64,000 bases of DNA, taken from positions 1,874 through 65,873 of the forward strand of contig JABJKG010000013.1 of assembly GCA_018660415.1 (NCBI GenBank), given 5' to 3'. Position 1 is the stretch's first letter. Every line of letters starts with the position of its first letter. This DNA comes from a bacterium (GTDB lineage Bacteria; Babelota; Babeliae; Babelales; UBA12409). The notes beneath the pieces are model-generated. The model was not told the origin of the DNA and did no database searches. It worked only from the letters and a program-made list of their open reading frames with translations. Shown in pieces: positions 7,482 to 64,000 of the stretch. The position numbers and the translations under genes are program-made.

Positions 7482-7940
7482 CTATTTATATTTATAAGAA
7501 TCTTTAAGCTCTCGAGCTGTCTCTCGCTTAATGTCTCGCTCGCGCATCTCTTTCTTTTTGCCTGTAGCTTTTTTATGCTTAGCAATACCGAGCTCAAGCT
7601 TAATTTTACCTTTAGAAAAGTACAACTTAAGAGGAACCAGAGTTATACCCTTTTTGGATATATCACCATATAATTTTAGCATCTGACGCTTATGCAGTAA
7701 AAGCTTTCGAGAACGTTCTGGATTTTCTTCCGACTTGGAGTATGCATGAGAATAGGGGCTGATATGTGTTGCAATCAAAAACAACTCACCTTTCGTAAAG
7801 ACTGCATATGAACCAGACATGTTTACATGTCCCGCCCGTAACGACTTTACTTCATCACCCAACAATACTATGCCCGCTTCGAGAGTATCTAAGATCTCAT
7901 AATCAAAGAATGCTTTTTTATTTTTAGTTATAAGCTTCAC
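7482..7940 (-). CDS. smpB: SsrA-binding protein SmpB
   Basis: KNKKAFFDYEILDTLEAGIVLLGDEVKSLR and a basic C-terminal tail. 152 aa. Confidence 0.92.
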   Translation of the reverse strand: MKLITKNKKAFFDYEILDTLEAGIVLLGDEVKSLRAGHVNMSGSYAVFTKGELFLIATHISPYSHAYSKSEENPERSRKLLLHKRQMLKLYGDISKKGITLVPLKLYFSKGKIKLELGIAKHKKATGKKKEMRERDIKRETARELKDSYKYK

Positions 7941-31105: not shown

Positions 31106-31690
31106 ATGAACAAAGCAATTCTAATTATATGTTTTTTATTGCACACGACTGTCCATGCAGAAGATCATCGCGTATATATCACCAATAACACTCAAGAAGT
31201 CATTCCACATGTTCGAATTAAAGTAACCATGAAAGGTTGGCAAAAGTATGATATTCCCGAACTATTCTTAAAAGCTGGTGCCCCTAAAACAGAAAACGTT
31301 GCTACACTCCGGAGCGGGTCGGTACATATTTTCGACCTTTATCCTGCAGGCACTCAGGTTGCAATACTTGAAAAAGCAAAACACCGACATCGTAGCTCTA
31401 TACTCCCGGACCCTAAGTGTCCACATTTTTACCCGACTGGTGGAAAAAAACTAGATAGCTGGTCCCCCCTAGGAGCTTACCTACAAGATACTGTTGTAAC
31501 CCAATTATGTCGCATCATTGTGGACACCGAAACTAGATGCTCTGATGGTTGCAACCTAACAAGAAAAGGAAAGTGTGCTGAATGTCATGACAATGCAGAT
31601 TTTAGTATATGGGCCGCCCCTACCAAAGAAAACAACCAATATGAGGTGATTAAAGAGAATGGTAAAGTTGTGGTCAAAGCTCTCAAATAA
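31106..31690 (+). CDS. Secreted Cys-containing protein, paralog 2 (unknown family)
   Basis: Signal peptide is present. Same YITNNTQEVIPHVRIKV block. C-terminal RCSDGCNLTRKGKCAECHDNA. Confidence 0.6.
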   Translation: MNKAILIICFLLHTTVHAEDHRVYITNNTQEVIPHVRIKVTMKGWQKYDIPELFLKAGAPKTENVATLRSGSVHIFDLYPAGTQVAILEKAKHRHRSSILPDPKCPHFYPTGGKKLDSWSPLGAYLQDTVVTQLCRIIVDTETRCSDGCNLTRKGKCAECHDNADFSIWAAPTKENNQYEVIKENGKVVVKALK

Positions 31691-34539: not shown

Positions 34540-35841
34540 ATGAAACCAACCATTCCACAACTGTTTTTTTCCACACTACTCTTAACATCAATGTATGTTC
34601 AATCTAAGAAAAATACTCCAGAATTTTCTGAACTGGTTTTCACACCAATCAATTCACAACAAATAAGAACTGTAACCATTCCTAAGTCTAAACTTCAGAA
34701 TGCCCTTGATGGCGGTGCAGCGTTTGACGGTTCTTCAATCGGTGGATACGGTACTATCACGGATAGTGACAAGCTCTTAAAGGTCGATTCTAATGCTCAC
34801 TACTCTCTTTATAATGAAGAAAGTGACACAGCTACCGGATTATATTTTTGTGATGTCTACGCCGATGAAAAAACTCCATACCTAGGTGATCCACGCACGT
34901 TATGTAAACATGCAATGCAGGTGCTTCAAGAAAAAACTGGTTATCAAATTTCTGTTGGCACCGAACTAGAATTTTATTTGATAGACAAAGAGGCCTGGGA
35001 ACAAGGCGAAATAACACCTATCAACCAATCACGCTATTTTGATTTAGAGCCAGACCAGGAAATTACTACGTTTAAACTTGAAGCCATGAAAGCTCTAGTT
35101 GAAAGTGGTGTTGATGTAGAAAAATGGCATAGCGAAGTCGGACCCGCACAGTATGAAATTAGTATTCAATATACCGATCCAATTTCACTTGGAGATCAAT
35201 TAATACTCGCTAAACACATTATTGCGCTACACGCAGATAGAGCTGGCATGAAAGCTATTTTCACACCTAAGCCTATTGCTACAGAAAATGGCAGCGGTCT
35301 TCATATCCATTTTAGCTTATGGAATAAAAAAACAAATGCTTTTTACGATGCACAAGTCAACGGCTTATCTCAAACCGCTTACACGTTCTTAGCTGGTATC
35401 ATGAAGTACATTTCTGATGTAGCACCTTTATTCAACTGCGACGAAAATTCTTTCCAGCGATTAGTTCCAGGGTTTGAAGCTCCTATTTACCTCTGTTATG
35501 GAGAAAAAAACCGATCAGCTGCATTTAGAATTCCAGCTACATACGGTAGTGCAAATGCAACACGCTTTGAGTTACGCTGCCCTGATGTATATTGCAACCC
35601 ATACTTAGCGTTTACCGCCATTATACTCACAGGGCTACAAGGTTTAATCGATAACGAACAAGCCGTTCCTGAAATCAAGAGTAATTTGTACACGATGACC
35701 GAAGAAGAAATTGCTAGCCTTAACATTAAGCGCTTACCGCTCTCTCTTAAAGAAGCGTTAGAAAATTTTGAAAACAGTGGGTTTGTAAAACAACACTTAC
35801 CAGAAGAGTTTGTAACAAACTTTTTACACCTTATGAAATAA
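34540..35841 (+). CDS. Glutamine synthetase family protein (type I-like)
   Basis: FDGSSIGG, GTELEFYL, GSGLHIHFSLW and NRSAAFRIP motifs. Confidence 0.85.
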   Translation: MKPTIPQLFFSTLLLTSMYVQSKKNTPEFSELVFTPINSQQIRTVTIPKSKLQNALDGGAAFDGSSIGGYGTITDSDKLLKVDSNAHYSLYNEESDTATGLYFCDVYADEKTPYLGDPRTLCKHAMQVLQEKTGYQISVGTELEFYLIDKEAWEQGEITPINQSRYFDLEPDQEITTFKLEAMKALVESGVDVEKWHSEVGPAQYEISIQYTDPISLGDQLILAKHIIALHADRAGMKAIFTPKPIATENGSGLHIHFSLWNKKTNAFYDAQVNGLSQTAYTFLAGIMKYISDVAPLFNCDENSFQRLVPGFEAPIYLCYGEKNRSAAFRIPATYGSANATRFELRCPDVYCNPYLAFTAIILTGLQGLIDNEQAVPEIKSNLYTMTEEEIASLNIKRLPLSLKEALENFENSGFVKQHLPEEFVTNFLHLMK

Positions 35842-36439
35842 AAAACCTTTGACCATCCTGGTCAAAATAGATAGTTCCAATCAAAGAAAGAGGGCGCTTT
35901 AAAAGCGTCTTCTTTCTTTTTAACAAAAGGAATGCAGGGTTTTTGGTATTAGCGATTAAAAACTCTCTCTTATCATTCAAGAATTTAAAAAACCATTTCC
36001 CATTAGCATGTTGCTTAACAGTGCCATAAAAATTACCAGTAATAGCTTTCAAGTTAAACTTCTGTTGCAGTAGCGCTGTCTCTATTGCTTCTATATTTAA
36101 CTTTTGTTGTAAGTGCTTCATAGCACCATAGCTTTTGTTGCAATCATTCTCTACCCAATGATACTGCGGCTCCTTAAGCCCTCTTATCCCCTTAAGAGCA
36201 ACTGCTGCAGCCTTTGCACACACTCGGCATTCTACTCCTGCAATCCAAAGTTTATATAAACATTCTTGTTGCTTTTTTACCGAATGTTTTTTCACTACCG
36301 GCTTTTTAGCAGGTTGAACTATTGTTGCTTTTTTTTGTTTTCTCTTTTTTGCCCTTCTTTTACGCACACGCGAGTCGGTACTAAAAGCTATGCAAGAAAG
36401 CATTAAAAATAAAACGTATAGTTTGTGTATTTGTTTCAT
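35831..36439 (-). CDS. Secreted basic protein with an HMA-like (CxxC) segment
   Basis: Signal peptide is present, followed by a Lys/Arg-rich linker. IAGVECRVCAKAAAVALKGIRGL resembles the heavy-metal-associated fold motif. The 3' end overlaps the glutamine synthetase stop by 11 nt, convergently. Confidence 0.4.
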   Translation of the reverse strand: MKQIHKLYVLFLMLSCIAFSTDSRVRKRRAKKRKQKKATIVQPAKKPVVKKHSVKKQQECLYKLWIAGVECRVCAKAAAVALKGIRGLKEPQYHWVENDCNKSYGAMKHLQQKLNIEAIETALLQQKFNLKAITGNFYGTVKQHANGKWFFKFLNDKREFLIANTKNPAFLLLKRKKTLLKRPLSLIGTIYFDQDGQRFFIS

Positions 36440-36654: not shown

Positions 36655-38511
36655 TTATTCTACCTCTTGTTCAATAATAGTAGGTGTAACAAAAATAAAT
36701 CTTTCAGTCGTTTCATTGTAATCAAAATCACTCTTGAATAAAACTTTTCCTATGATTGGCAGCTTACTGAGGTACGGAATATCGTTCGAAGCTGAGTTAT
36801 TTCTATTTCCTGAAAGTCCACCAATAATTGTCGTCTGACCACTCTTTAAAATAACGTTGTTTTTTGCCTTTATAACGGATATTGTTGGCGGGTTGGTCAT
36901 AATACCTTGATCATTGGCGCGCGTGTCACCGGAGGTGACCTGAGAGTCTTCTAGGAAGACATCTAGCGTTACACTCTTACCATCTGAACTTGCTGTCGGC
37001 TTAACCTCTAGAACAATACCAGTATCTTTAAAGTTAATAGTAGTAATGTTTCGTGTGTTAGCAGTAGTAACATCTTCAATTGCAGTTTGAAGTGGAATAC
37101 TTTGTCCAATTAACAACTTAGCAGTTTCATTATTACTGGTCAGAACCGATGGTCGTGAAATAATTTTAAGCTTACTGTGTGTTTCCGCGGCATTGAGTAC
37201 CAAGTTTAAGCGCCGTAAGTTTAAGTCGGGACCACCAAAAACAAATGGTATTTTTATAAAGTCAGCAATTCTACGAATATCAGCCTTATCACTTAATAGT
37301 GAGTTAAGTGATGAGAAAAGATTAACTGAAAAATTGTCTGGATTAACGAGTAGGTTAGAATTATTATCTACCGTACTACTGGTCGGTGTTGGATAGTCTG
37401 TGGATGTAGCACCAAAGCCCCAGAACCCGGTTCCGCTTCTGCTCTCCATTGTTTGCTGTCGGTTATAAATACCAGACCAATCAATACCAAATGCAAAATC
37501 GAAAGATTTTTGTGCTAATACTAAAATCACATCAATACGAATTTGGATAATTGGTTTATCTATCTCAAACAAGAACTTGTAAAGCTCCTGCACTTCTACA
37601 GGATGCCCCCGAACAAGAACCTTCTTTTCTTCATCGTCAATATATAAATACTTGTTGGGGTCTTTTTTGGAACCATCATCGCCACTCACGCTCCTCCAAG
37701 CATTTTTAACTTTCTTAACAAATTTATCGGTAACCCGCGCATGCTTAATAGGCAACGCCTTGTGTACAAGCTTCCCAGCATTTTCTTCACGCAATATTTG
37801 TTGAGCTTCTGAATACAGCATAATGCGCCAAACATCTGCACCCTTTTTGATTACAGCAAGCTTGGGTTTATGGCTATCTGTTATAAGTCGTAACAGCTCT
37901 CCAGGAGTCTTGTTTTTGATTTGCAGTGCTCCAACATTACCCGTTACATCTTGATCAATAAGGAAGCTAATTCCAGAAAGTTTTGCAATGGTTTCAAGCG
38001 CTTTTTTTATACCCATGGGTGGGGTATTAAGACTAATTTTTTTTGCATTGAGTGCTGGATCCTCAAAAACCATATTCAGGTCTTGTTCCAATAAAGAAGT
38101 CGAACTCAAGTCAGAAGAACTGGAAGCATTCATGCCCTGCTGGACTGGTGCTCTTCGAGGTGAACTTTTTGGAACATCCTCTCCGGCCATTCCTTTTTTT
38201 GAAGCCTCTAAAAGCCGACCCTTTTTCAGTCTATCTATGACCTCATCTGCCATATCATCAGTCTTTTTTTTAATGTCTACATCTTGAAGATGACTACGCA
38301 CTAAGTATGGTGAAACATCTACTGGCTTTGGAACAAAAGGGTTATCTCCTGTTGAGGTAAACCCATGAGGGCCAAATTGTTGATCGTGCCCTTGTTCCTG
38401 ACTTCGAGAGTCAGCTGACATAGATGAAAAACCTTGCTCACTTAAGTTGGTAACTCCCATAGCTCCGGTAGCACCTATAAAAAATACTAAAAAAAATCTC
38501 TTCATTACCAT
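36655..38511 (-). CDS. Secretin (PilQ/GspD family)
   Basis: Signal peptide, then a low-complexity N-region. N0-like domain: KKALETIAKLSGISFLIDQDVTGNV. C-terminal secretin domain: ISRPSVLTSNNETAKLLIGQSIPL...FVTPTII. Confidence 0.85.
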   Translation of the reverse strand: MVMKRFFLVFFIGATGAMGVTNLSEQGFSSMSADSRSQEQGHDQQFGPHGFTSTGDNPFVPKPVDVSPYLVRSHLQDVDIKKKTDDMADEVIDRLKKGRLLEASKKGMAGEDVPKSSPRRAPVQQGMNASSSSDLSSTSLLEQDLNMVFEDPALNAKKISLNTPPMGIKKALETIAKLSGISFLIDQDVTGNVGALQIKNKTPGELLRLITDSHKPKLAVIKKGADVWRIMLYSEAQQILREENAGKLVHKALPIKHARVTDKFVKKVKNAWRSVSGDDGSKKDPNKYLYIDDEEKKVLVRGHPVEVQELYKFLFEIDKPIIQIRIDVILVLAQKSFDFAFGIDWSGIYNRQQTMESRSGTGFWGFGATSTDYPTPTSSTVDNNSNLLVNPDNFSVNLFSSLNSLLSDKADIRRIADFIKIPFVFGGPDLNLRRLNLVLNAAETHSKLKIISRPSVLTSNNETAKLLIGQSIPLQTAIEDVTTANTRNITTINFKDTGIVLEVKPTASSDGKSVTLDVFLEDSQVTSGDTRANDQGIMTNPPTISVIKAKNNVILKSGQTTIIGGLSGNRNNSASNDIPYLSKLPIIGKVLFKSDFDYNETTERFIFVTPTIIEQEVE

Positions 38512-38533
38512 CTATTTTTCCATTTTTTGTATT

Positions 38534-38905
38534 TTATGATTCTTTATCTTTCATTATCTTTTGCTTATCACCATCTTGGTGTTGTAGTTCCACATAGTCC
38601 GGAGTTATATTCACAACTTTCCAAACTCCATCAAACTCGTGATCCACGTTAACAATTTGTAGCTCCTTTTTCCACTCAATGAACGCAAACTCTTCACCAT
38701 CACATTCCGCATTTCCCATGTACTTGCAATAGTTTGCTACTATCGCTCGAGGCGGAGCAAAAGGATCTCTTCTTTTTTTCTTTTTTATATTCCCTGGTGT
38801 TGGTTTGTTTTTCTGTGTCTTGACAGCTCCAACGTCCGCACCTTTGCTGTTTATTTCAACAACAAAAAGGGTTAACAACAAAGCGACTAACTGCTTACTG
38901 TTCAT
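38534..38905 (-). CDS. PilP-like lipoprotein/periplasmic pilotin-type protein
   Basis: Signal peptide is present. RRDPFAPP motif followed by a small beta-rich domain. Sits directly upstream of the secretin. Confidence 0.5.
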   Translation of the reverse strand: MNSKQLVALLLTLFVVEINSKGADVGAVKTQKNKPTPGNIKKKKRRDPFAPPRAIVANYCKYMGNAECDGEEFAFIEWKKELQIVNVDHEFDGVWKVVNITPDYVELQHQDGDKQKIMKDKES

Positions 38906-38914
38906 AAAAACTAC

Positions 38915-39469
38915 CTACTCATCAAACGTATAAGCTTGTACAACACATTCCAGCATCAAAATATCATTTTTCTTCTGAATTACCAATTGTGGAACTTTAT
39001 TAAAAAACTTATAGTTTTTTATTTTTTCAAGCAAATCAATACAGTCAAAAAAACTACCCGCAGTTACAAACTTTAAGGGCTGTTTTTTGTACCATTTTTT
39101 CATTTTAACTTTTTGTGGAGAGCAATACGTAAGGAGCAAATCAGAAGAGCTTACATCTTTTAGAACATTTTTAAATAAATTATTAATAGAGCCGAACTTA
39201 TTTAAGGCGAGTTTGGAACCAATATCATTAGATAAAGAATCACAACCGTGACGCAACTTATCAACATCATTATGCAATACATAAAACTGTTGTTGCTGCT
39301 TTTTTAAGCTTTGCAACATTGCGACAGCACGCTGCTCTTGTAACAGTAAAGGAGAATAATAAAAGGAGTACCATGCTACAACAGCACCCGTGAGAATGAT
39401 CAAGGTAACTATGTACCTCGTCCATAATGACATATAAGATACATCATTGGGCATTCTTACCATTTCCAC
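38915..39469 (-). CDS. PilO/PilN-like bitopic membrane protein
   Basis: Single N-terminal transmembrane helix, a coiled-coil segment (QEQRAVAMLQSLKKQQQQF) and a small C-terminal domain. The call rests on gene position and topology only. Confidence 0.4.
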   Translation of the reverse strand: MEMVRMPNDVSYMSLWTRYIVTLIILTGAVVAWYSFYYSPLLLQEQRAVAMLQSLKKQQQQFYVLHNDVDKLRHGCDSLSNDIGSKLALNKFGSINNLFKNVLKDVSSSDLLLTYCSPQKVKMKKWYKKQPLKFVTAGSFFDCIDLLEKIKNYKFFNKVPQLVIQKKNDILMLECVVQAYTFDE

Positions 39470-39510
39470 TCTTCCTTTTTAATGGTAATCCCGATCTTTT
39501 TCCTTTTTAA

Positions 39511-40740
39511 TCAAAAATCAGTCTTTGTCCACTGCATAGGGTCTATAGGTACGTTCTTAAGTCGTTGTTCCCAATGTAAATGTGCACCACTAGCATATCC
39601 TGTCTTGCCCATAACACCAACTGGATTTCCTCGTTTAACTTTATCACCAACTGAGATATCCGCAAATGAATCTAGATGACACAGCAATGAAAGCACTCCA
39701 AGGCCATGATCAATTACAATAGTGTTACCGGTATGAACATACCGCTCTTTAACAACAATAACACCATCGTGAGGCGCCCAAACCACACAATGTAGTGGTC
39801 CGATCACATCGAGAGCACGATGGGCATATCGCCCTTTTTCCTGGGTTATTCTAACAGTACCAAAATCACAAGTCACACGTGACAGCTCTAAAGGAACAAA
39901 AAACGGTCCCTTCCAAAGTTTTTTACTTGGAGAGCTACTAGTACACTCTTCTAGGTGCCTATCCAACTGAGTAGTTGGTAACCCAACTTCCCTTTCTTTT
40001 TCCATTTTATCCGCGCTGACCGTTAAGGTTTGTCTCTTAAATGGATAACCCATAACCTGGAACTTGTCTTCTAAAATCAATGTATTTCCGACCTTATCAA
40101 CAACCTCAATACGAACAGGATGCTCGCTCGGTGACTCCTCATAAGGAACAGGAACAAAACTCTCATAAACAGTAGAATGCTCAGACTCTTGATAGCACGG
40201 ATGAATTCCCGATAATGTTTTTACATTAGCATGGTCAATTTCTTTATTGGCTTGGAACTGCAAGTGTAATGTCCGACCCTGAAAAATTTTATCATCAGCA
40301 CCAGAGCGAACCATGGCTGCCTGGAGCGGCGTATTATCAATTTCAAAGTTGCATTCATAAACCGCAACATTGCCATTATAACTCTTATCACACGCCTCTA
40401 ATTTAAGGGCGTGACGTCCATTGGCAATCGCCTTGGTGGGAATAGGCAGCATGTTTTCTTGCCCTTTACTCACCCTAAACTTAGAAATAACAGGCTTTTT
40501 GTCTAACCAAACAGAAACATCGCTTGGCTTACTTACACCAACCAAACAACGAAGATCGCCAGCATAGCAGGCCCCTTCTTCTAATCCATTGATAGACAAC
40601 GCTGGCAACGTTCTATCAAAGAAATAGTTAAACATACTCCAGGAAAACCACCCTAAAACAATAACCCCAACAACAATTAATACTCTACGTAACGTAACCA
40701 TGCACTCTACTCCAATACCCTTTTTAGCCACTTTTTTCAA
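39511..40740 (-). CDS. M23 (LytM-domain) peptidase, membrane-anchored
   Basis: N-terminal transmembrane helix. C-terminal HRALDV...IDHGLGVLSLLCHL...GYASGAHLHWE is the M23 H-x3-D / H-x-H pattern. Confidence 0.8.
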   Translation of the reverse strand: MKKVAKKGIGVECMVTLRRVLIVVGVIVLGWFSWSMFNYFFDRTLPALSINGLEEGACYAGDLRCLVGVSKPSDVSVWLDKKPVISKFRVSKGQENMLPIPTKAIANGRHALKLEACDKSYNGNVAVYECNFEIDNTPLQAAMVRSGADDKIFQGRTLHLQFQANKEIDHANVKTLSGIHPCYQESEHSTVYESFVPVPYEESPSEHPVRIEVVDKVGNTLILEDKFQVMGYPFKRQTLTVSADKMEKEREVGLPTTQLDRHLEECTSSSPSKKLWKGPFFVPLELSRVTCDFGTVRITQEKGRYAHRALDVIGPLHCVVWAPHDGVIVVKERYVHTGNTIVIDHGLGVLSLLCHLDSFADISVGDKVKRGNPVGVMGKTGYASGAHLHWEQRLKNVPIDPMQWTKTDF

Positions 40741-40852
40741 TGATAATGCTCATTTTCAATATACTTTAGTTTCAGCTTAAGGTAAAACTAAAGACTGTTT
40801 AGATTACAAATACTCAATTTTGTTGTATAATGAAAAAAAAAAGATTCTACCT

Positions 40853-42109
40853 ATGATGATTAAAGATAAGATCAAGTCACTCCCTGATTACTCAGGGATT
40901 TACATTTTCAAGGATGTATATCAAACGATTATATACATTGGCAAGGCAAAATCGCTTAAAACGCGAGTTAAGTCTTATTTCCAAAAAACAATGGATTTTA
41001 AGACGCAGATCCTTTCTGAAGAGATTTATGATGTTGATTATATTCCAACTCAAAATGAAGATGAGGCATTGCTTCTGGAAGCACAGCTGATTAAAAAACA
41101 TCAGCCGAAGTTCAATATTTTACTTAAGGACGGACAACCCTTTATATACCTCGTAATTACTCAAGGTTCGATACCGGAATTTAAAATAGTTCGAAGTAAA
41201 AAGCTTAAGGGCACCTATTTTGGGCCGTTCATTTATAAAACTCAAGCACGACGGGTTCATACTTTTTTAACACAAACGTTTAACACCCGGTTGTGCAACA
41301 AAAAAATTGATAATGGATGCCTGCAATACCATATTGGAATCTGTGCTGGGAACTGCATGAAAAGTTTTGACACACAAGAACACTCACTTAGAGTTGAATT
41401 GGTAAAAAAAATACTGCAACGAAAATACAAAGAGTTTGAACAAGAGGTGCACGCTCAAATTGAACAATACAATAAAGGCATGCTGTTTGAAAAATCTAAA
41501 AAACTTAATGAATATTTAGACAACCTTGAATACATTGTGTCTGTTATCAAGCTTCATTTTTCTACGAAAAAATTTGAACCACAGATCTCCCTTGCTGAAA
41601 AAAAGGCAACACAGCGCTTAATGCCCAAACCCGAAATAGCTGCTGAACTCAAGCAGGAATTTGGCCTTAAGCATAAGGCGCACATTATAGACTGCTTTGA
41701 TATCTCTCATTTCCAAAGCCATTATATCGTAGGATCATGCGTCAGGTTTGTTGATGGCGTACCCGCAAAAAACTATTTCCGTCGCTTTAAGATCAAAACC
41801 CTAGACCAACAAAATGATTACGCTGCGCTTGCTGAGATAGTGCAACGCCGGTATAAGCTCAAAGATTTTCCCGACCTTATCGTCATTGATGGCGGCAAAG
41901 GACAACTTAATGCTATAAAAACATTGTTTAAGAACGTTGAATGTATTAGCTTAGCAAAAAGAGAGGAAAGAATTTTTTGTGATACTTATCCACAGGGAAA
42001 GGTGTTAGATATTCATACAGAGACAGGCAAGCTGTTGATCGCACTGCGTGATTACGCACACCACTTTGCCATTTCGTATCACAGAAAAAGGAGATCTAAA
42101 GGAAATTAA
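40853..42109 (+). CDS. uvrC: UvrC-like excinuclease lacking the C-terminal (HhH)2 domain
   Basis: GIY-YIG N-terminus (GIYIFKD..IIYIGKAKSLKTRVKSYF). UVR-like helix pair. RNase-H-like domain (IDCFDISH ... DYAHHFAISYHRKRR). The protein ends after about 418 aa. TATAAT at 40826-40831 argues against the TTG start at 40820. Confidence 0.8.
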   Translation: MMIKDKIKSLPDYSGIYIFKDVYQTIIYIGKAKSLKTRVKSYFQKTMDFKTQILSEEIYDVDYIPTQNEDEALLLEAQLIKKHQPKFNILLKDGQPFIYLVITQGSIPEFKIVRSKKLKGTYFGPFIYKTQARRVHTFLTQTFNTRLCNKKIDNGCLQYHIGICAGNCMKSFDTQEHSLRVELVKKILQRKYKEFEQEVHAQIEQYNKGMLFEKSKKLNEYLDNLEYIVSVIKLHFSTKKFEPQISLAEKKATQRLMPKPEIAAELKQEFGLKHKAHIIDCFDISHFQSHYIVGSCVRFVDGVPAKNYFRRFKIKTLDQQNDYAALAEIVQRRYKLKDFPDLIVIDGGKGQLNAIKTLFKNVECISLAKREERIFCDTYPQGKVLDIHTETGKLLIALRDYAHHFAISYHRKRRSKGN

Positions 42110-52438: not shown

Positions 52439-53605
52439 ATGAGCTTGTTACAACCACTTATGTCTCGCTTTCCTACCATTCAATACCTCAACATATCTCT
52501 TATTGCTGGCATTCTTTTTGCTTATCAATTTAACTTTCCTATTTCATTCTCTATGCTTTGCTTTGGTGTTTGCTGCTTTTGCTTCACCAGTCTTAAAACC
52601 ACTACAAACAAGATCCAATTTGGTGTTTTGTTTTCCTTTTTATTAGGGATCACCACTTTTCAAGTACATGAACTATCTTTTACTCAAACAGCTCAACAAT
52701 TATCGGGGTTTCAGGCCAAGGTTTGTGGAACTGTTAAAAATATTGAAACTATACACAATAATAAATTTACCTACAAGTCAACAATACAAACTCACCGCGA
52801 TTCTAAAAAAACCGAATACAGCATATGGATTTTTACCAAAAAACAACCCGAATTCAAGATAAGCGACCTTATTGAACTGGAAAAAATATATTTTCAAAGT
52901 CCTCTGAAAAAAAATATCGAACAATGGATGAAAAAAGAAAAAATTATAGGCAGTGCTTTTGTAAAAAATTTAACCTTTACAACAATAAAACAGGGAAAGA
53001 GTTCCAATCTATTTGCACCAATAACCACCTATATTAACCACAAAAGAAACCAAACATTTCAAAATATATACAATAAAGTACCTACTCACGTTGGTGACCT
53101 TATTGGTCTCATTTTTTTTGGCTATAAACAGAATATCGAACCCAATAAGTTAATGGCCCTACGAACTCTTTATCTTAAATGGGGACTTTCTCATTACCTG
53201 GCTCGCTCTGGTCTACATATTGTTATATTGTTTGGACTTCTCAATTTCCTGCTCTCCTTTCTCTATATCCCCTATCGTTCTAAAAAGATAATCCTCCTCC
53301 TTTTTTGTTTAATCTATACAGTTCTTAGTTGGACCAGTATCTCTTATCTTCGAGCGCTCATACTGATTGTCCTTTGCATGATCGCCCAGTTAAACAAACT
53401 TCAACTTTCCTTGTTACACCTTATAAACCTTGCTTGTTTTGCTATCCTGCTGTGGAACCCCCAACAACTTTTTAGCCTCGACTTTCAGCTCAGCTTTGCG
53501 CTCACCTACAGTTTGATTCTTATGAACCTTCTTATACAAATTCCTCCAACCCCGCTACCACAAGCCCTACAAAAATCGAGACCTGTTTCCTCGAGTCATA
53601 CTTAA
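52439..53605 (+). CDS. ComEC/Rec2-like membrane protein, truncated (no metallo-beta-lactamase domain)
   Basis: N-terminal helices plus an OB-like segment. Competence-domain motif WGLSHYLARSGLHIVILFG. The ORF ends about 125 aa after this motif in a non-membrane Pro-rich tail. Confidence 0.65.
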   Translation: MSLLQPLMSRFPTIQYLNISLIAGILFAYQFNFPISFSMLCFGVCCFCFTSLKTTTNKIQFGVLFSFLLGITTFQVHELSFTQTAQQLSGFQAKVCGTVKNIETIHNNKFTYKSTIQTHRDSKKTEYSIWIFTKKQPEFKISDLIELEKIYFQSPLKKNIEQWMKKEKIIGSAFVKNLTFTTIKQGKSSNLFAPITTYINHKRNQTFQNIYNKVPTHVGDLIGLIFFGYKQNIEPNKLMALRTLYLKWGLSHYLARSGLHIVILFGLLNFLLSFLYIPYRSKKIILLLFCLIYTVLSWTSISYLRALILIVLCMIAQLNKLQLSLLHLINLACFAILLWNPQQLFSLDFQLSFALTYSLILMNLLIQIPPTPLPQALQKSRPVSSSHT

Positions 53606-61758: not shown

Positions 61759-63735
61759 ATGACCCGTTCAATACGTTCCCTACTAATGTTATCGTTGTTA
61801 TGTGTTTCAACAGTTTTTTCCTCAAAGGAATACTGTGGTGAAGTTTGTGAGAAATGTGAGCAAAATATCACAATTCCTACTAACGCAAAAATTTGTAAAT
61901 TTTTGTCGTACACGGATCCCGCGACAGGATTTAAAATCTGTATTGATTTGCAACAAAAACCAGAACTGTACTATGCGCGAAGTGTTCAGCGGTTTAGTGA
62001 AAACCCTGATGATCAGTGGATCTATGTGCAAAGTATTTGGGATTTAACGTCTGCTATTAATTATCAGGATTCTTTGCAGTCCAAGCTTGGTATTCGTAAC
62101 AAGGCTCGTTGGGGGTCGCCGGCAATTATTAATACGACAGAAGAAACTATTAAGGCTGGTGATGCTGTTACTGGTAAACATCGTCACTATATTGGTCGTC
62201 AATTCATGTGGATTCGGGAAGCGTGGGTTCAGATTAGTTTAAATGAAGCCATTGGTTTGCCAACGTGCAACGAACACTACTTTAAAATTGGGGCCTTCTC
62301 TTTCAAGCTTGGTCGTGGAATTTCATTGGGTGACGCGTATGCGGTTTCGCCGGGTGTTGTTGGTTTCTATGTAGATGATGTTGTTGATCAGTATGCGTAT
62401 GGTCTTTCTGAGCACGGTGAAGTTATTCATTGTCGACTTTCTTATGATTTTTATTATGAAATGGCTCGTAATCGTTCTGGATCATTTAGCGAGGTTGCTG
62501 AAGCTGTTTATGCCCAAGATCCTTCTAGATATAGTTGCCCAAGTCGCGGTTTTGGTAGTATTACTCAGTTGGTAGCATTCAAGTTTGATTATCATCCATT
62601 TGATCCGGAGTCATCGTGTGGGTATTTAAACATGCAGCCATATGTTCTTGGTGCGTATGCTCCTGAACAAAGAGTAGAGGTTCAGCCAGATGCGTTTATG
62701 CAGATGGGTACCTGGGGTTGTGCTTTTGATTATACTCGTCGTAATTTTGTTTGGGGTGGTGAGCTTGCGTTTAACCGTGGAGCTCAAACAGTGCGTCCTT
62801 TAGATCGCAACCAGATTAAAGAGGTCCGCAACAGTGATGGGTTCTTAGTCAATCAGTATACTCAAGTTTATACTGATGCTGCTCTTACAACCAAGGCTCT
62901 TGTGTCTGATGCAAACAAGGTAATTGTTGATGCGGACAATGGAAGCCCGGTTAGTAATGGAACTGAAATTGGTTCTACTGGTTTATATAATGGTTTGAAG
63001 CGCTATCGTCCAAAATATAAAAACCATCTTGGTGGTTTTATGGCGATTACGGACTTTGGTTGGACTGTGTGTAATGAGAATATAAAACTAGTAGGTACGT
63101 TGGCATATGCGAGTGGTGATCAGGATCCTAATAAAAACCTTGTTGATCCATTAGATAGTCGTGAAGATAATACCTATAATGGTTTTGTCGGATTACAAGA
63201 AGTGTATGCTGGTAAGCAAGTACAATCTGTATTTGTTATTGGTTCTCACCGTATTTCTCGACCATTATCAACTCCTTCTGAGGGTGTTCCACAGATTGAG
63301 CGATTTGCCTCAACTACTTCAGGGTTTACCAACTTGATGATTGCTGGTTTTGGTGTGCACTGGATGCCACAGACCTGTACAACTCGTTTTAATATGCGTC
63401 CAAACTTGATTGCATATTGGAATGCGACTGCAAGTAATAAATTTGATATAACGACTGGACAAACCATTGACGAACCTGCGAGTAAGTTTTTGGGAGCAGA
63501 ATTTAACTTGTTCTTTGATTTCCGCTTATTAAAAGAAACAATCAAAGTGTTTGGTGTGGGTGCAGCATTCTTCCCTGGACAGCATTATAAAGATGTTCTT
63601 GGAAAACCCCAAAGCGCTGATGAAGCTGCTCGTTTGGCAAAAAATATAAAGAATGGCAACCCTGCTGATACGAACTTGTTATTGGGTGATAGTATGGCCC
63701 TAGCGTTCAATATTGGTTTTGAGTATGCCTTTTAG
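61759..63735 (+). CDS. Putative outer-membrane beta-barrel protein
   Basis: Signal peptide is present. Cys-rich segment CGEVCEKCEQ after the cleavage region. Alternating beta-strand-like composition. C-terminal FNIGFEYAF ends in an aromatic residue. Confidence 0.55.
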   Translation: MTRSIRSLLMLSLLCVSTVFSSKEYCGEVCEKCEQNITIPTNAKICKFLSYTDPATGFKICIDLQQKPELYYARSVQRFSENPDDQWIYVQSIWDLTSAINYQDSLQSKLGIRNKARWGSPAIINTTEETIKAGDAVTGKHRHYIGRQFMWIREAWVQISLNEAIGLPTCNEHYFKIGAFSFKLGRGISLGDAYAVSPGVVGFYVDDVVDQYAYGLSEHGEVIHCRLSYDFYYEMARNRSGSFSEVAEAVYAQDPSRYSCPSRGFGSITQLVAFKFDYHPFDPESSCGYLNMQPYVLGAYAPEQRVEVQPDAFMQMGTWGCAFDYTRRNFVWGGELAFNRGAQTVRPLDRNQIKEVRNSDGFLVNQYTQVYTDAALTTKALVSDANKVIVDADNGSPVSNGTEIGSTGLYNGLKRYRPKYKNHLGGFMAITDFGWTVCNENIKLVGTLAYASGDQDPNKNLVDPLDSREDNTYNGFVGLQEVYAGKQVQSVFVIGSHRISRPLSTPSEGVPQIERFASTTSGFTNLMIAGFGVHWMPQTCTTRFNMRPNLIAYWNATASNKFDITTGQTIDEPASKFLGAEFNLFFDFRLLKETIKVFGVGAAFFPGQHYKDVLGKPQSADEAARLAKNIKNGNPADTNLLLGDSMALAFNIGFEYAF

Positions 63736-63759: not shown

Positions 63760-64000
63760 ATGATAGAGTCTTTGAAGAGAAGTTTTGGATGTGGAGAAGT
63801 TAATAAAGATTCCCTTGGGAAAGTTATTACTTTAGTTGGTTGGCTTGCAACACGGCGAGATCATGGTGGTCTTATTTTTGTTGATTTGCGTGATCGCAGT
63901 GGGCTTATGCAGGTTGTTTTTAATCCTGAAAAAGCAGCAGAAGCACACAAGCTTGCACATTCTTTGCGTTCAGAGTTTGTTATTGGTGTAACAGGTACCG
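63760..64000 (+). CDS. aspS: Aspartyl-tRNA synthetase, N-terminal fragment (runs off the right edge)
   Basis: Manual translation from the ATG at 63760, after AGGAG, gives [56 protein letters not shown]. This is the canonical anticodon-binding OB-fold start. Confidence 0.9.

Follow-up and report, generated by a model that had tools for sequence, protein, structure and literature searches.

A PilO-, PilP- and secretin-encoding operon led by an M23 peptidase gene in Dependentiae

In a 64-kb stretch of DNA from a Babeliales bacterium (Dependentiae/TM6), hereafter the window, a gene for an M23 (LytM) metallopeptidase heads an operon that continues with genes for a PilO-like inner-membrane protein, a PilP-like connector, a PilQ-like secretin and a lipoprotein-like protein with an HMA domain (Table 1). 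We consider it probable that this five-gene operon, headed by the M23 gene, is ancestral in Dependentiae and specifies that half of a type IV pilus-like machine which lies in the periplasm and outer membrane; its genes arrange a known machine in an unusual way and do not make up a conduit of a new kind. By arithmetic, the window corresponds to positions 139,111-203,110 of a 408-kb metagenome-assembly scaffold in ENA, and coordinates are window positions unless a locus (L number) is named. An earlier reading of the same DNA, the original prediction, had described a four-gene module in a reduced, host-dependent cell, in which the peptidase was suggested to replace PilM and PilN and so give a variant outer-membrane conduit. 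The four genes are real: all lie on the minus strand exactly where they had been placed, separated by gaps of 41, 9 and 22 nucleotides (nt), and the host, as one of the Babeliales, is indeed reduced and host-dependent. The gene count was one short, as a conserved fifth gene follows the secretin gene after 215 nt, and the idea of replacement gives way to the evidence set out below.

Products of the five genes

The lead protein matches Pfam Peptidase_M23 (E = 2e-21, residues 307-401) and the NCBIfam Pgp3 model (E = 2.3e-32, residues 148-405). Its AlphaFold2 model (predicted local distance difference test score, pLDDT, 87; predicted template modelling score, pTM, 0.76) runs from a transmembrane helix (17-41) through two beta domains, of which the first (48-134) is an Ig-like sandwich and the second spans 141-238, to a helical linker that leads into the LytM domain (288-405). 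The top Foldseek match is C. jejuni Pgp3 (6jmy; E = 1.5e-19, template modelling (TM) score on the target 0.80), with further matches to 2hsi, ShyA (6ue4), Csd3 (4rnz), the N. gonorrhoeae M23 structure 6muk and NMB0315. Among the 40 orthologues used for residue conservation and for the model, the zinc-binding and catalytic residues H307, D311, H355, H387 and H389 (HxxxD, H and HxH) are invariant in 40/40, so the enzyme should be active; its sequence is that expected of a catalytically competent, membrane-anchored peptidase of the Pgp3/Csd3/ShyA class. Homologues form 563 clusters, and most of the 120 listed show about 50% identity along their whole length. Translation probably begins a few codons past the TTG, and the homologues have 396-406 amino acids (aa). 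The anchor and juxtamembrane residues, about 28-46 with the consensus GWxGWxxYxYFFDxTxP, are nearly invariant in the 40 orthologues. Such near-invariance is unusual for a simple anchor and suggests a protein contact within the membrane.

For the smaller proteins, family profiles were built from collected orthologues (PilO-like, n = 15; PilP-like, n = 15; lipoprotein, n = 13), and profile searches bear out the predicted PilO-like and PilP/GspC-HR-like identities. The second protein passes the Pfam PilO model (PF04350; 24.4 bits, cut-off 22), and its family profile matches M. xanthus PilO (3jc8_O; E = 3.7e-9) over positions 11-183, nearly the full length. The layout is likewise that of PilO: a bitopic protein with a short cytoplasmic tail, a transmembrane helix, a coiled coil and a C-terminal alpha/beta domain in the position of the ferredoxin-like periplasmic domain. 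Aligned by hhalign with the Dependentiae PilN family it gives a probability of 88% (E = 2.9e-6), and it is therefore best seen as a paralogue of PilN, not as PilN itself. The third protein has no Pfam or NCBIfam match as a single sequence. Its family profile matches the GspC HR domain (2lnv, 8.9e-5; 3oss_C, 0.023) and PilP (2ivw from N. meningitidis, 5e-4; 4av2_M, 1.5e-3), supporting an HR domain at profile level with modest E-values. A signal peptide leads directly into a nearly invariant R[DN]PF motif (P48 and F49 invariant, R46 conserved in at least 90%), followed by a small beta domain; the window copy has no lipobox cysteine. Searches of the window by tblastn with relatives' PilO and PilP returned no match, because these genes evolve too fast.

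The fourth protein is a secretin (Pfam Secretin, E = 1.6e-38; weak matches to N0 and Secretin_N). Its alignment with the PilQ model TIGR02515 runs from one end to the other (E = 7.4e-48, positions 2-428 of 428), at 163.6 bits and thus below the cut-off of 284, and that with the GspD model TIGR02517 covers only the C-terminal half (positions 299-593 of 600). The secretin domain (335-614) comes after a signal peptide, a non-conserved disordered region of about 115 aa with one predicted helix, an N0 domain and a single N domain; in the AlphaFold2 model (pLDDT 68), N0 (about 155-232) and the one N, or ring-building, domain (about 249-334) are predicted with confidence. The N-terminal region had been called low-complexity, but its entropy of 3.95 bits equals that of the rest of the protein; it is instead predicted to be disordered at 19-78 and 108-133 (about residues 20-135), and it is not conserved. 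Of the AMIN-N0-N-secretin architecture of PilQ, the window protein has N0, N and secretin domains and no match to AMIN (PF11741), a domain that many more distant PilQ matches carry. It also has no N2, N3 or S domain, and the GspD arrangement, N0-N1-N2-N3 with a GspC partner bearing T2SSC and PDZ domains, is absent: a single N domain follows N0, and the partner consists of HR only. Foldseek places the V. cholerae competence-pilus PilQ first (6w6m, E = 1.9e-19), with type II (PulD, GspD) and type III secretion system secretins close behind, and a search with the monomer model does not separate PilQ from GspD or InvG. Relatives form a Dependentiae-specific clade of 75 clusters (E <= 7e-53; named Candidatus Babeliales, Dependentiae or TM6), beyond which a large gap leads to a Spirochaetes protein (6.5e-19) and then to PilQ of other phyla (about 1e-15). 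By sequence, the secretin is thus closest to the PilQ class, in an AMIN-less form.

The fifth protein combines a lipoprotein-type leader, an N-terminal HMA-type (CopZ/MerP-like) domain and a C-terminal domain without a recognized fold. The single sequence has no Pfam match and at most weak NCBIfam similarity to HMA, whereas the family profile matches HMA domains (2roe, 1.1e-5; CopA 2rml, 2.2e-5); its 5.6e-9 against ATP7B (7xuk) is a sum over six weak repeats, the best single-domain i-Evalue being 0.85. E70, C71 and C74 (E-C-x-x-C) are invariant, placing a CxxC where the first loop of a beta-alpha-beta-beta-alpha-beta HMA domain is predicted, and most orthologues have lipobox cysteines. Of 24 secretin-bearing loci whose downstream sequence is available, not all of them independent, 18 have this gene after the secretin. 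No TPR (PilF/Tgl) or PulS/AspS-type pilotin was found in the operon or in the scanned window open reading frames (ORFs), and the HMA lipoprotein is possibly a secretin accessory or assembly factor, or a pilotin. 'Hypothetical protein' is the public annotation of the PilP-like protein and of the lipoprotein, and likewise of the closest homologues of the secretin and of M23 that were looked up.

Table 1. Coordinates of the operon, its presumed promoter region and the second cluster on the scaffold
Feature	Position	Strand	Evidence
M23 (LytM) metallopeptidase, 409 aa	39511..40740	-	Pfam, NCBIfam, AlphaFold2, Foldseek
PilO-like bitopic inner-membrane protein, 184 aa	38915..39469	-	Pfam, family profile
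PilP/GspC-HR-like periplasmic connector, 123 aa	38534..38905	-	family profile
PilQ-like secretin, 618 aa	36655..38511	-	Pfam, NCBIfam, AlphaFold2, Foldseek
HMA-domain lipoprotein-like protein, 202 aa (fifth gene)	35831..36439	-	family profile
M23/uvrC divergent intergenic region, 79 nt	40741..40819	.	presumed operon promoter
Second type IV filament cluster	L105 15115-21977, 2.9-9.7 kb past window position 64000	-	3'-flank look-up

Gene order across Dependentiae

When loci were sampled by their secretin, M23 lay directly upstream of PilO(-PilP)-secretin in 17 of the 20 that were informative for its position, and three closely related loci (L011, L012 and L014) had PilO-PilP-secretin-lipoprotein with ClpB in place of M23. 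Sampling by M23 gave another picture. A PilO-like gene directly follows M23 in 57 of 61 Joint Genome Institute (JGI) metagenome loci with at least 700 bp downstream, PilP and the secretin follow in only 5 of the 31 with at least 3.5 kb downstream, and all three additional M23 loci, from very long contigs (L018-L020), have M23-PilO without the secretin cassette. The M23-pilOPQ order, whose conservation the original prediction proposed to check, is kept in most secretin-sampled loci and in few M23-sampled ones. Taken over 85 loci, the gap from M23 to PilO has a median of 30 nt and is at most 100 nt in 75, including 11 overlaps. Because the M23-PilO pair persists without an adjacent secretin, M23 is not a secretin-specific adaptor.

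Everywhere, the common block reads ClpB(-) and UvrC(-), then M23 and PilO, optionally PilP, secretin and lipoprotein, and then GlnA(-) or an ABC transporter(-). Neighbour-joining trees of M23 place the full operon in three deep groups and gather every secretin-less locus into one clade whose sister is the window's group, so that a single loss or relocation of the cassette is the simplest reading. PilP-secretin-lipoprotein is therefore a cassette that was lost or moved in the largest clade, and M23-PilO is an old, nearly universal pair.

Several loci depart from these two states. At L093 (9953-12464), the HMA lipoprotein directly follows M23-PilO, with neither PilP nor secretin, and looks like the remnant of a cassette deletion within the secretin-less clade. 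L103 (8187-11599) and L104 (8183-12089), sisters in the M23 tree, have M23-PilO-secretin without PilP, and their secretins, of 532 and 525 aa, are rich in P, T and S at the N-terminus and have no N0 domain. PilP and its presumed docking domain thus appear to have been lost together in this lineage, as expected if the partner of PilP is N0, which is established for PilP/PilQ (PMC5285504). L003 (4612-10464; also L037, 4588-10458) carries four tandem secretin genes after the PilP-like gene (508, 471, 366 and 583 aa), 26-36% identical to the window secretin, and L003 has no HMA lipoprotein.

PilM, PilN and the competing explanations

The window was scanned with Pfam on unassigned ORFs, with prepilin and Walker-A motifs and with a PilN profile, and these scans found no PilM, PilN, pilin, A24 prepilin peptidase or T2SSE. 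The remaining ORFs are recognizable housekeeping genes, and those within 10 kb of the secretin all have precomputed Pfam labels. The PilN profile reached only the PilO-like gene (E = 0.03), and a word-indexed search with it yielded just 10 close relatives, all of them outside the window's clade. The absence noted earlier of PilM/PilN, pilin, prepilin peptidase and ATPase genes within 64 kb thus holds, and it depends on where the window ends: 6.6 kb past its 3' end, the scaffold carries a PilM-type gene.

That gene belongs to a cluster seen in locus L105, about 27-33 kb from the operon, which encodes a 192-aa protein, an 833-aa GspD-type secretin, a bitopic 190-aa protein, the 544-aa PilM-type protein (its gene about 30 kb from that of M23) and a further GspD-type secretin, at least 793 aa long. 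The 833-aa secretin matches TIGR02517 over positions 37-591 of 600 (E = 3.3e-69). The PilM-type protein passes the cut-off of PF11104 (PilM_2; E = 4.9e-19), also matches TIGR01175 (E = 8.5e-27) and T2SSL (E = 1.5e-7), and has a transmembrane segment near 360-390 followed by about 150 periplasmic residues. Because hhalign of this periplasmic part against PilN was not significant, the label of a PilM-PilN fusion, or GspL-like protein, describes its architecture only; hhalign of the bitopic 190-aa protein against PilO was likewise not significant. The order secretin then PilM-type recurs in L058, 4 kb from M23. The scaffold carries at least three secretins, that of the window and the two GspD-type ones flanking the PilM-type gene.

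In five relatives with an identical operon (L002, L005-L008), a PilN that passes the cut-off of PF05137 (E = 9.4e-12) is encoded 4-8 kb downstream of the secretin, and its profile reaches M. xanthus PilN with 4.5e-4. Four of the five also have a 143-163-aa protein that abuts or overlaps PilN on its upstream side (L002 18633-19584, L005 10188-11133, L006 18853-19801, L007 18106-19126), in L002 between prmC and pth; it has no Pfam or PDB match and may be a PilM remnant. Published COG tables point the same way for motor and pseudopilin genes. Counts for Babela and TM6SC1 are PulD 3/2, PulG 3/0, PulF 2/2, PulE-PilB 2/2, PilV 2/0 and PilM 1/1 (PMC4378268, Additional file 11), and components of type II secretion, and perhaps of type IV pili, have been described as core to TM6 (PMC4776705; such genes are also reported in PMC6561590). 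The companion genes whose presence elsewhere would speak against a variant conduit have accordingly been found in large part: a PilM-type gene lies on the scaffold itself and a separate PilN in relatives, neither being in the operon or the window, while the ATPases and pilins of this genome were not located. From the pattern in other Dependentiae, motor and pilin genes are expected to be encoded elsewhere in the genome.

We thus think it very improbable that M23 took the place of PilM/PilN and that M23-PilO-PilP-secretin is a self-contained outer-membrane conduit for uptake or secretion. The lack of PilM/PilN in the window would suit such a conduit, as would an M23 that, like PilN, is bitopic and whose gene occupies the slot of pilN directly upstream of pilO, the tightness and near-universality of the M23-PilO pair and the nearly invariant juxtamembrane motif. 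It is contradicted by the PilM-type, GspL-like gene on the scaffold, by PF05137 PilN in relatives with the identical operon and by the PilM, PulE and PulF tabulated for Babela and TM6SC1. Moreover, the modelled helix would leave M23 only about 16 cytoplasmic residues and no room for a motor-coupling domain, and M23-PilO persists without the secretin in most lineages. A purely housekeeping M23 remains a strong rival, if a somewhat unlikely one: an elongation or division DD-endopeptidase with no role in the secretin machine, next to it by coincidental synteny. No other gene of the set is as well conserved as M23 (its phylum-wide identity is about 50%, that of the secretin 36-48%, and PilO and PilP can hardly be aligned), the whole block from ClpB and UvrC to GlnA and the ABC transporter is syntenic, M23 stays where the cassette is gone, the L011 clade has PilO-PilP-secretin without it, and its closest structures (Pgp3, Csd3, ShyA) are enzymes of cell shape and growth. 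Against this stand the co-directional M23 and PilO genes, whose short gaps and overlaps are typical of co-translated partners and have survived deep divergence; the precedent of an M23B enzyme required for piliation; and a secretin without the AMIN domains that spare other type IVa pili a hydrolase.

A type II secretion outer-membrane complex (GspM-, GspC-HR- and GspD-like) exporting signal-peptide effectors, in place of a pilus or DNA uptake, seems to us unlikely. It would agree with the GspC HR domain as the best PDB match of the PilP-like profile, with a weak T2SSM match of the L018 PilO-like protein, with the type II system reported as the only secretion system of Babela, with signal peptides on 44% of C. 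destructans proteins (PMC6561590) and with the naming of both TM6 secretins as gspD, in 'two gspD copies', by Yeoh et al. (PMC4776705). However, L020 separately encodes a GspC with T2SSC and PDZ domains beside a 948-aa secretin, and the window's scaffold has its own two GspD-type secretins with full-length alignment to TIGR02517, such that separate canonical GspC and GspD-type genes weaken this explanation; the window secretin, moreover, aligns throughout only with PilQ, its top Foldseek match is a competence-pilus PilQ, and the PilO model passes its cut-off. Still less likely, in our view, is the co-option of PilO as a membrane partner or regulator of M23 (compare FtsEX-EnvC and the flagellar PilMNO), with the PilP-secretin link as ancestral baggage. 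A PilO-like gene adjoins M23 in 22 of the 26 secretin-less M23-sampled loci (with at least 3.5 kb downstream) and in L018-L020, the related ShyA and Pgp3 have closed, self-inhibited and open forms according to their PDB titles, and PilMNO has been co-opted by flagella (PMC10823254). Yet PilO stays with PilP-secretin where M23 is absent (the L011 clade), and the PilO-like protein of the secretin-less clade (clade D) could serve a GspD-type system or a relocated secretin.

For the pilus-like machine that we favour, a conditional sequence of contacts can be drawn. By analogy with PilP, the beta domain of the PilP-like protein would dock on secretin N0 and its N-terminal R[DN]PF segment on PilO. 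M23 would be the main cross-link-cleaving enzyme of the phylum, made with PilO and held beside it in the membrane, and would open the sacculus where the trans-envelope machine or machines are built; the HMA lipoprotein would assist the secretin. The machine could serve adhesion, secretion or, with the short ComEC described below, DNA uptake. A functional link with M23 is favoured by the tight, conserved M23-PilO pair, by the AMIN-less secretin and by a precedent: in the gonococcus, full piliation requires the M23B peptidase NGO1686/Mpg (PMC3735123). We regard as rather doubtful the further step that M23 is a built-in type IV filament subunit docked to PilO through its transmembrane and juxtamembrane segments, or conversely that PilO is the membrane regulator of M23, the two forming, either way, a functional unit that outlasts the loss of the secretin.

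Several observations weigh against the pilus-like machine. The conservation of M23, its persistence without the cassette and the L011/L012/L014 clade without M23 all fit a housekeeping enzyme, and adjacency alone is weak evidence because the whole neighbourhood is unusually syntenic across the phylum. Type IV pilus and type II secretion parts do not separate cleanly, with the GspC HR domain as the best PDB match of the PilP-like protein and PulD/GspD just after PilQ for the secretin, and the assignments of PilP and of the secretin N0 and N domains have modest E-values. No PilN, pilins, PilB/PilT, PilC or PilD of this genome were located, the pilotin role of the lipoprotein is conjectural, and what ties M23 to the pilus genes here is gene context.

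Neighbouring genes and comparison with known systems

The operon promoter presumably lies in the stretch from which M23 and uvrC diverge. Consensus-like sites at 40786-40758 (-) and 40803-40831 (+) occur in a region whose count of such sites is not above shuffled expectation, and for that reason we claim no operon boundary from promoter or terminator scans. The divergent arrangement, uvrC(-)/M23(+), is kept across the phylum. The window UvrC (40820-42109, +) has only 429 aa, with GIY-YIG, UvrC_M and RNase H-like domains and no C-terminal helix-hairpin-helix (HhH) match listed; in relatives it is also short (414-493 aa) and always divergent from M23.

The ComEC of the window (52439-53605, +; 388 aa) had been called truncated, and of the 270 positions of the Competence domain it covers only 2-152. 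We reject decay as the reading, since forms of 372-388 aa are found again in distant Dependentiae: a short ComEC (372-379 aa) adjoins a C11 clostripain-like peptidase in L020 and L103, and L104 also has one. This recurrence makes it a conserved reduced form and not a local truncation. Among the other genes, adjacent pairs of small signal-peptide proteins at 30544-31083/31106-31690 and 6642-7067/7060-7476 (+) look paralogous by eye, and the three of the four that were scanned (all but 31106-31690) have no Pfam match. A 658-aa signal-peptide protein (61759-63735, +), also without a Pfam match and kept beside endonuclease IV in L019, may be a phylum-specific outer-membrane protein. The transfer-messenger RNA gene lies at 2368-2758 (-; Rfam RF00023, 152 bits; tag peptide AENPYGNAQSYSSSTAIFA) and smpB at 7482-7940 (-).

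How large envelope machines pass the peptidoglycan is an open question for type IV pili. The model type IVa pilus is described as having no dedicated peptidoglycan hydrolase and as being pre-installed at the septum instead, through the AMIN domains of PilQ (PMC5285504). A phylum that co-encodes an AMIN-less PilQ-like secretin and PilO with an M23 enzyme makes a hydrolase-assisted route directly testable; if M23 and PilO do form a functional unit, it would be the dedicated wall-cutting module that type IVa pili are thought to lack, or a case of PilO as an endopeptidase regulator. The five states of the operon (full; PilP and N0 lost; cassette lost; M23 detached; secretin quadruplicated) form a natural deletion series for asking which contacts of the machine are obligatory. 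Earlier Dependentiae genome papers had already reported type IV pilus and type II secretion genes and a 'derived' secretin, in phrases such as 'pilQ absent, two gspD copies' and 'a derived pulD channel'; the present analysis separates the PilQ-like operon from the GspD-type secretins that flank a GspL-like protein. In the literature searched, we found no description of the M23-PilO-PilP-secretin-lipoprotein operon, of the near-universal M23-PilO pair, of the modular loss series or of the joint loss of PilP and N0.

Among known enzymes, M23 shares with Pgp3, Csd3 and ShyA the second beta domain, the LytM fold and intact HxxxD, H and HxH motifs; unlike these, it has an N-terminal transmembrane anchor and an extra Ig-like domain, and it leads a pilO-pilP-secretin operon instead of being encoded with cell-shape genes. 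Gonococcal Mpg is also an M23 peptidoglycan peptidase, and its activity affects the elaboration of type IV pili; the link is experimental in Neisseria, whereas gene position ties the window enzyme to pilus-like genes. With the PilMNOPQ complex of type IVa pili (P. aeruginosa, M. xanthus; 3jc8) the operon shares a PilO homologue, a small protein with a PilP-type HR domain predicted by profile, an N0-N-secretin and the order O-P-Q with tiny gaps, and a PilM-type protein is present in the same genome. It differs from that complex in having no pilM or pilN and an M23 gene in the upstream slot, a secretin without AMIN, and a PilP-like protein that is just 123 aa long and no lipoprotein. No TPR pilotin (PilF/Tgl) was seen in the window, where an HMA-fold lipoprotein follows instead, and the PilM-type protein of this genome has a transmembrane segment and a periplasmic part, as in GspL, and sits beside GspD-type secretins.

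The operon also has features in common with GspC-D-L-M of type II secretion. PilO and GspM, and PilM-N and GspL, are homologous families, the window HR protein is closest by profile to the HR domain of GspC, and the genome has GspD-type secretins and, by architecture only, a GspL-like fusion. The window secretin, in contrast, has one N domain in place of N1-N3 and no S domain, and the HR protein lacks the transmembrane/T2SSC region and the PDZ domain found in the genuine GspC of the Dependentiae locus L020. Other trans-envelope machines with dedicated peptidoglycan hydrolases follow the same logic, in that the enzyme is co-encoded with the envelope-spanning apparatus; hydrolases of this kind such as EtgA, VirB1 and FlgJ are lytic transglycosylases, whereas that of the window is an M23 endopeptidase-type enzyme.

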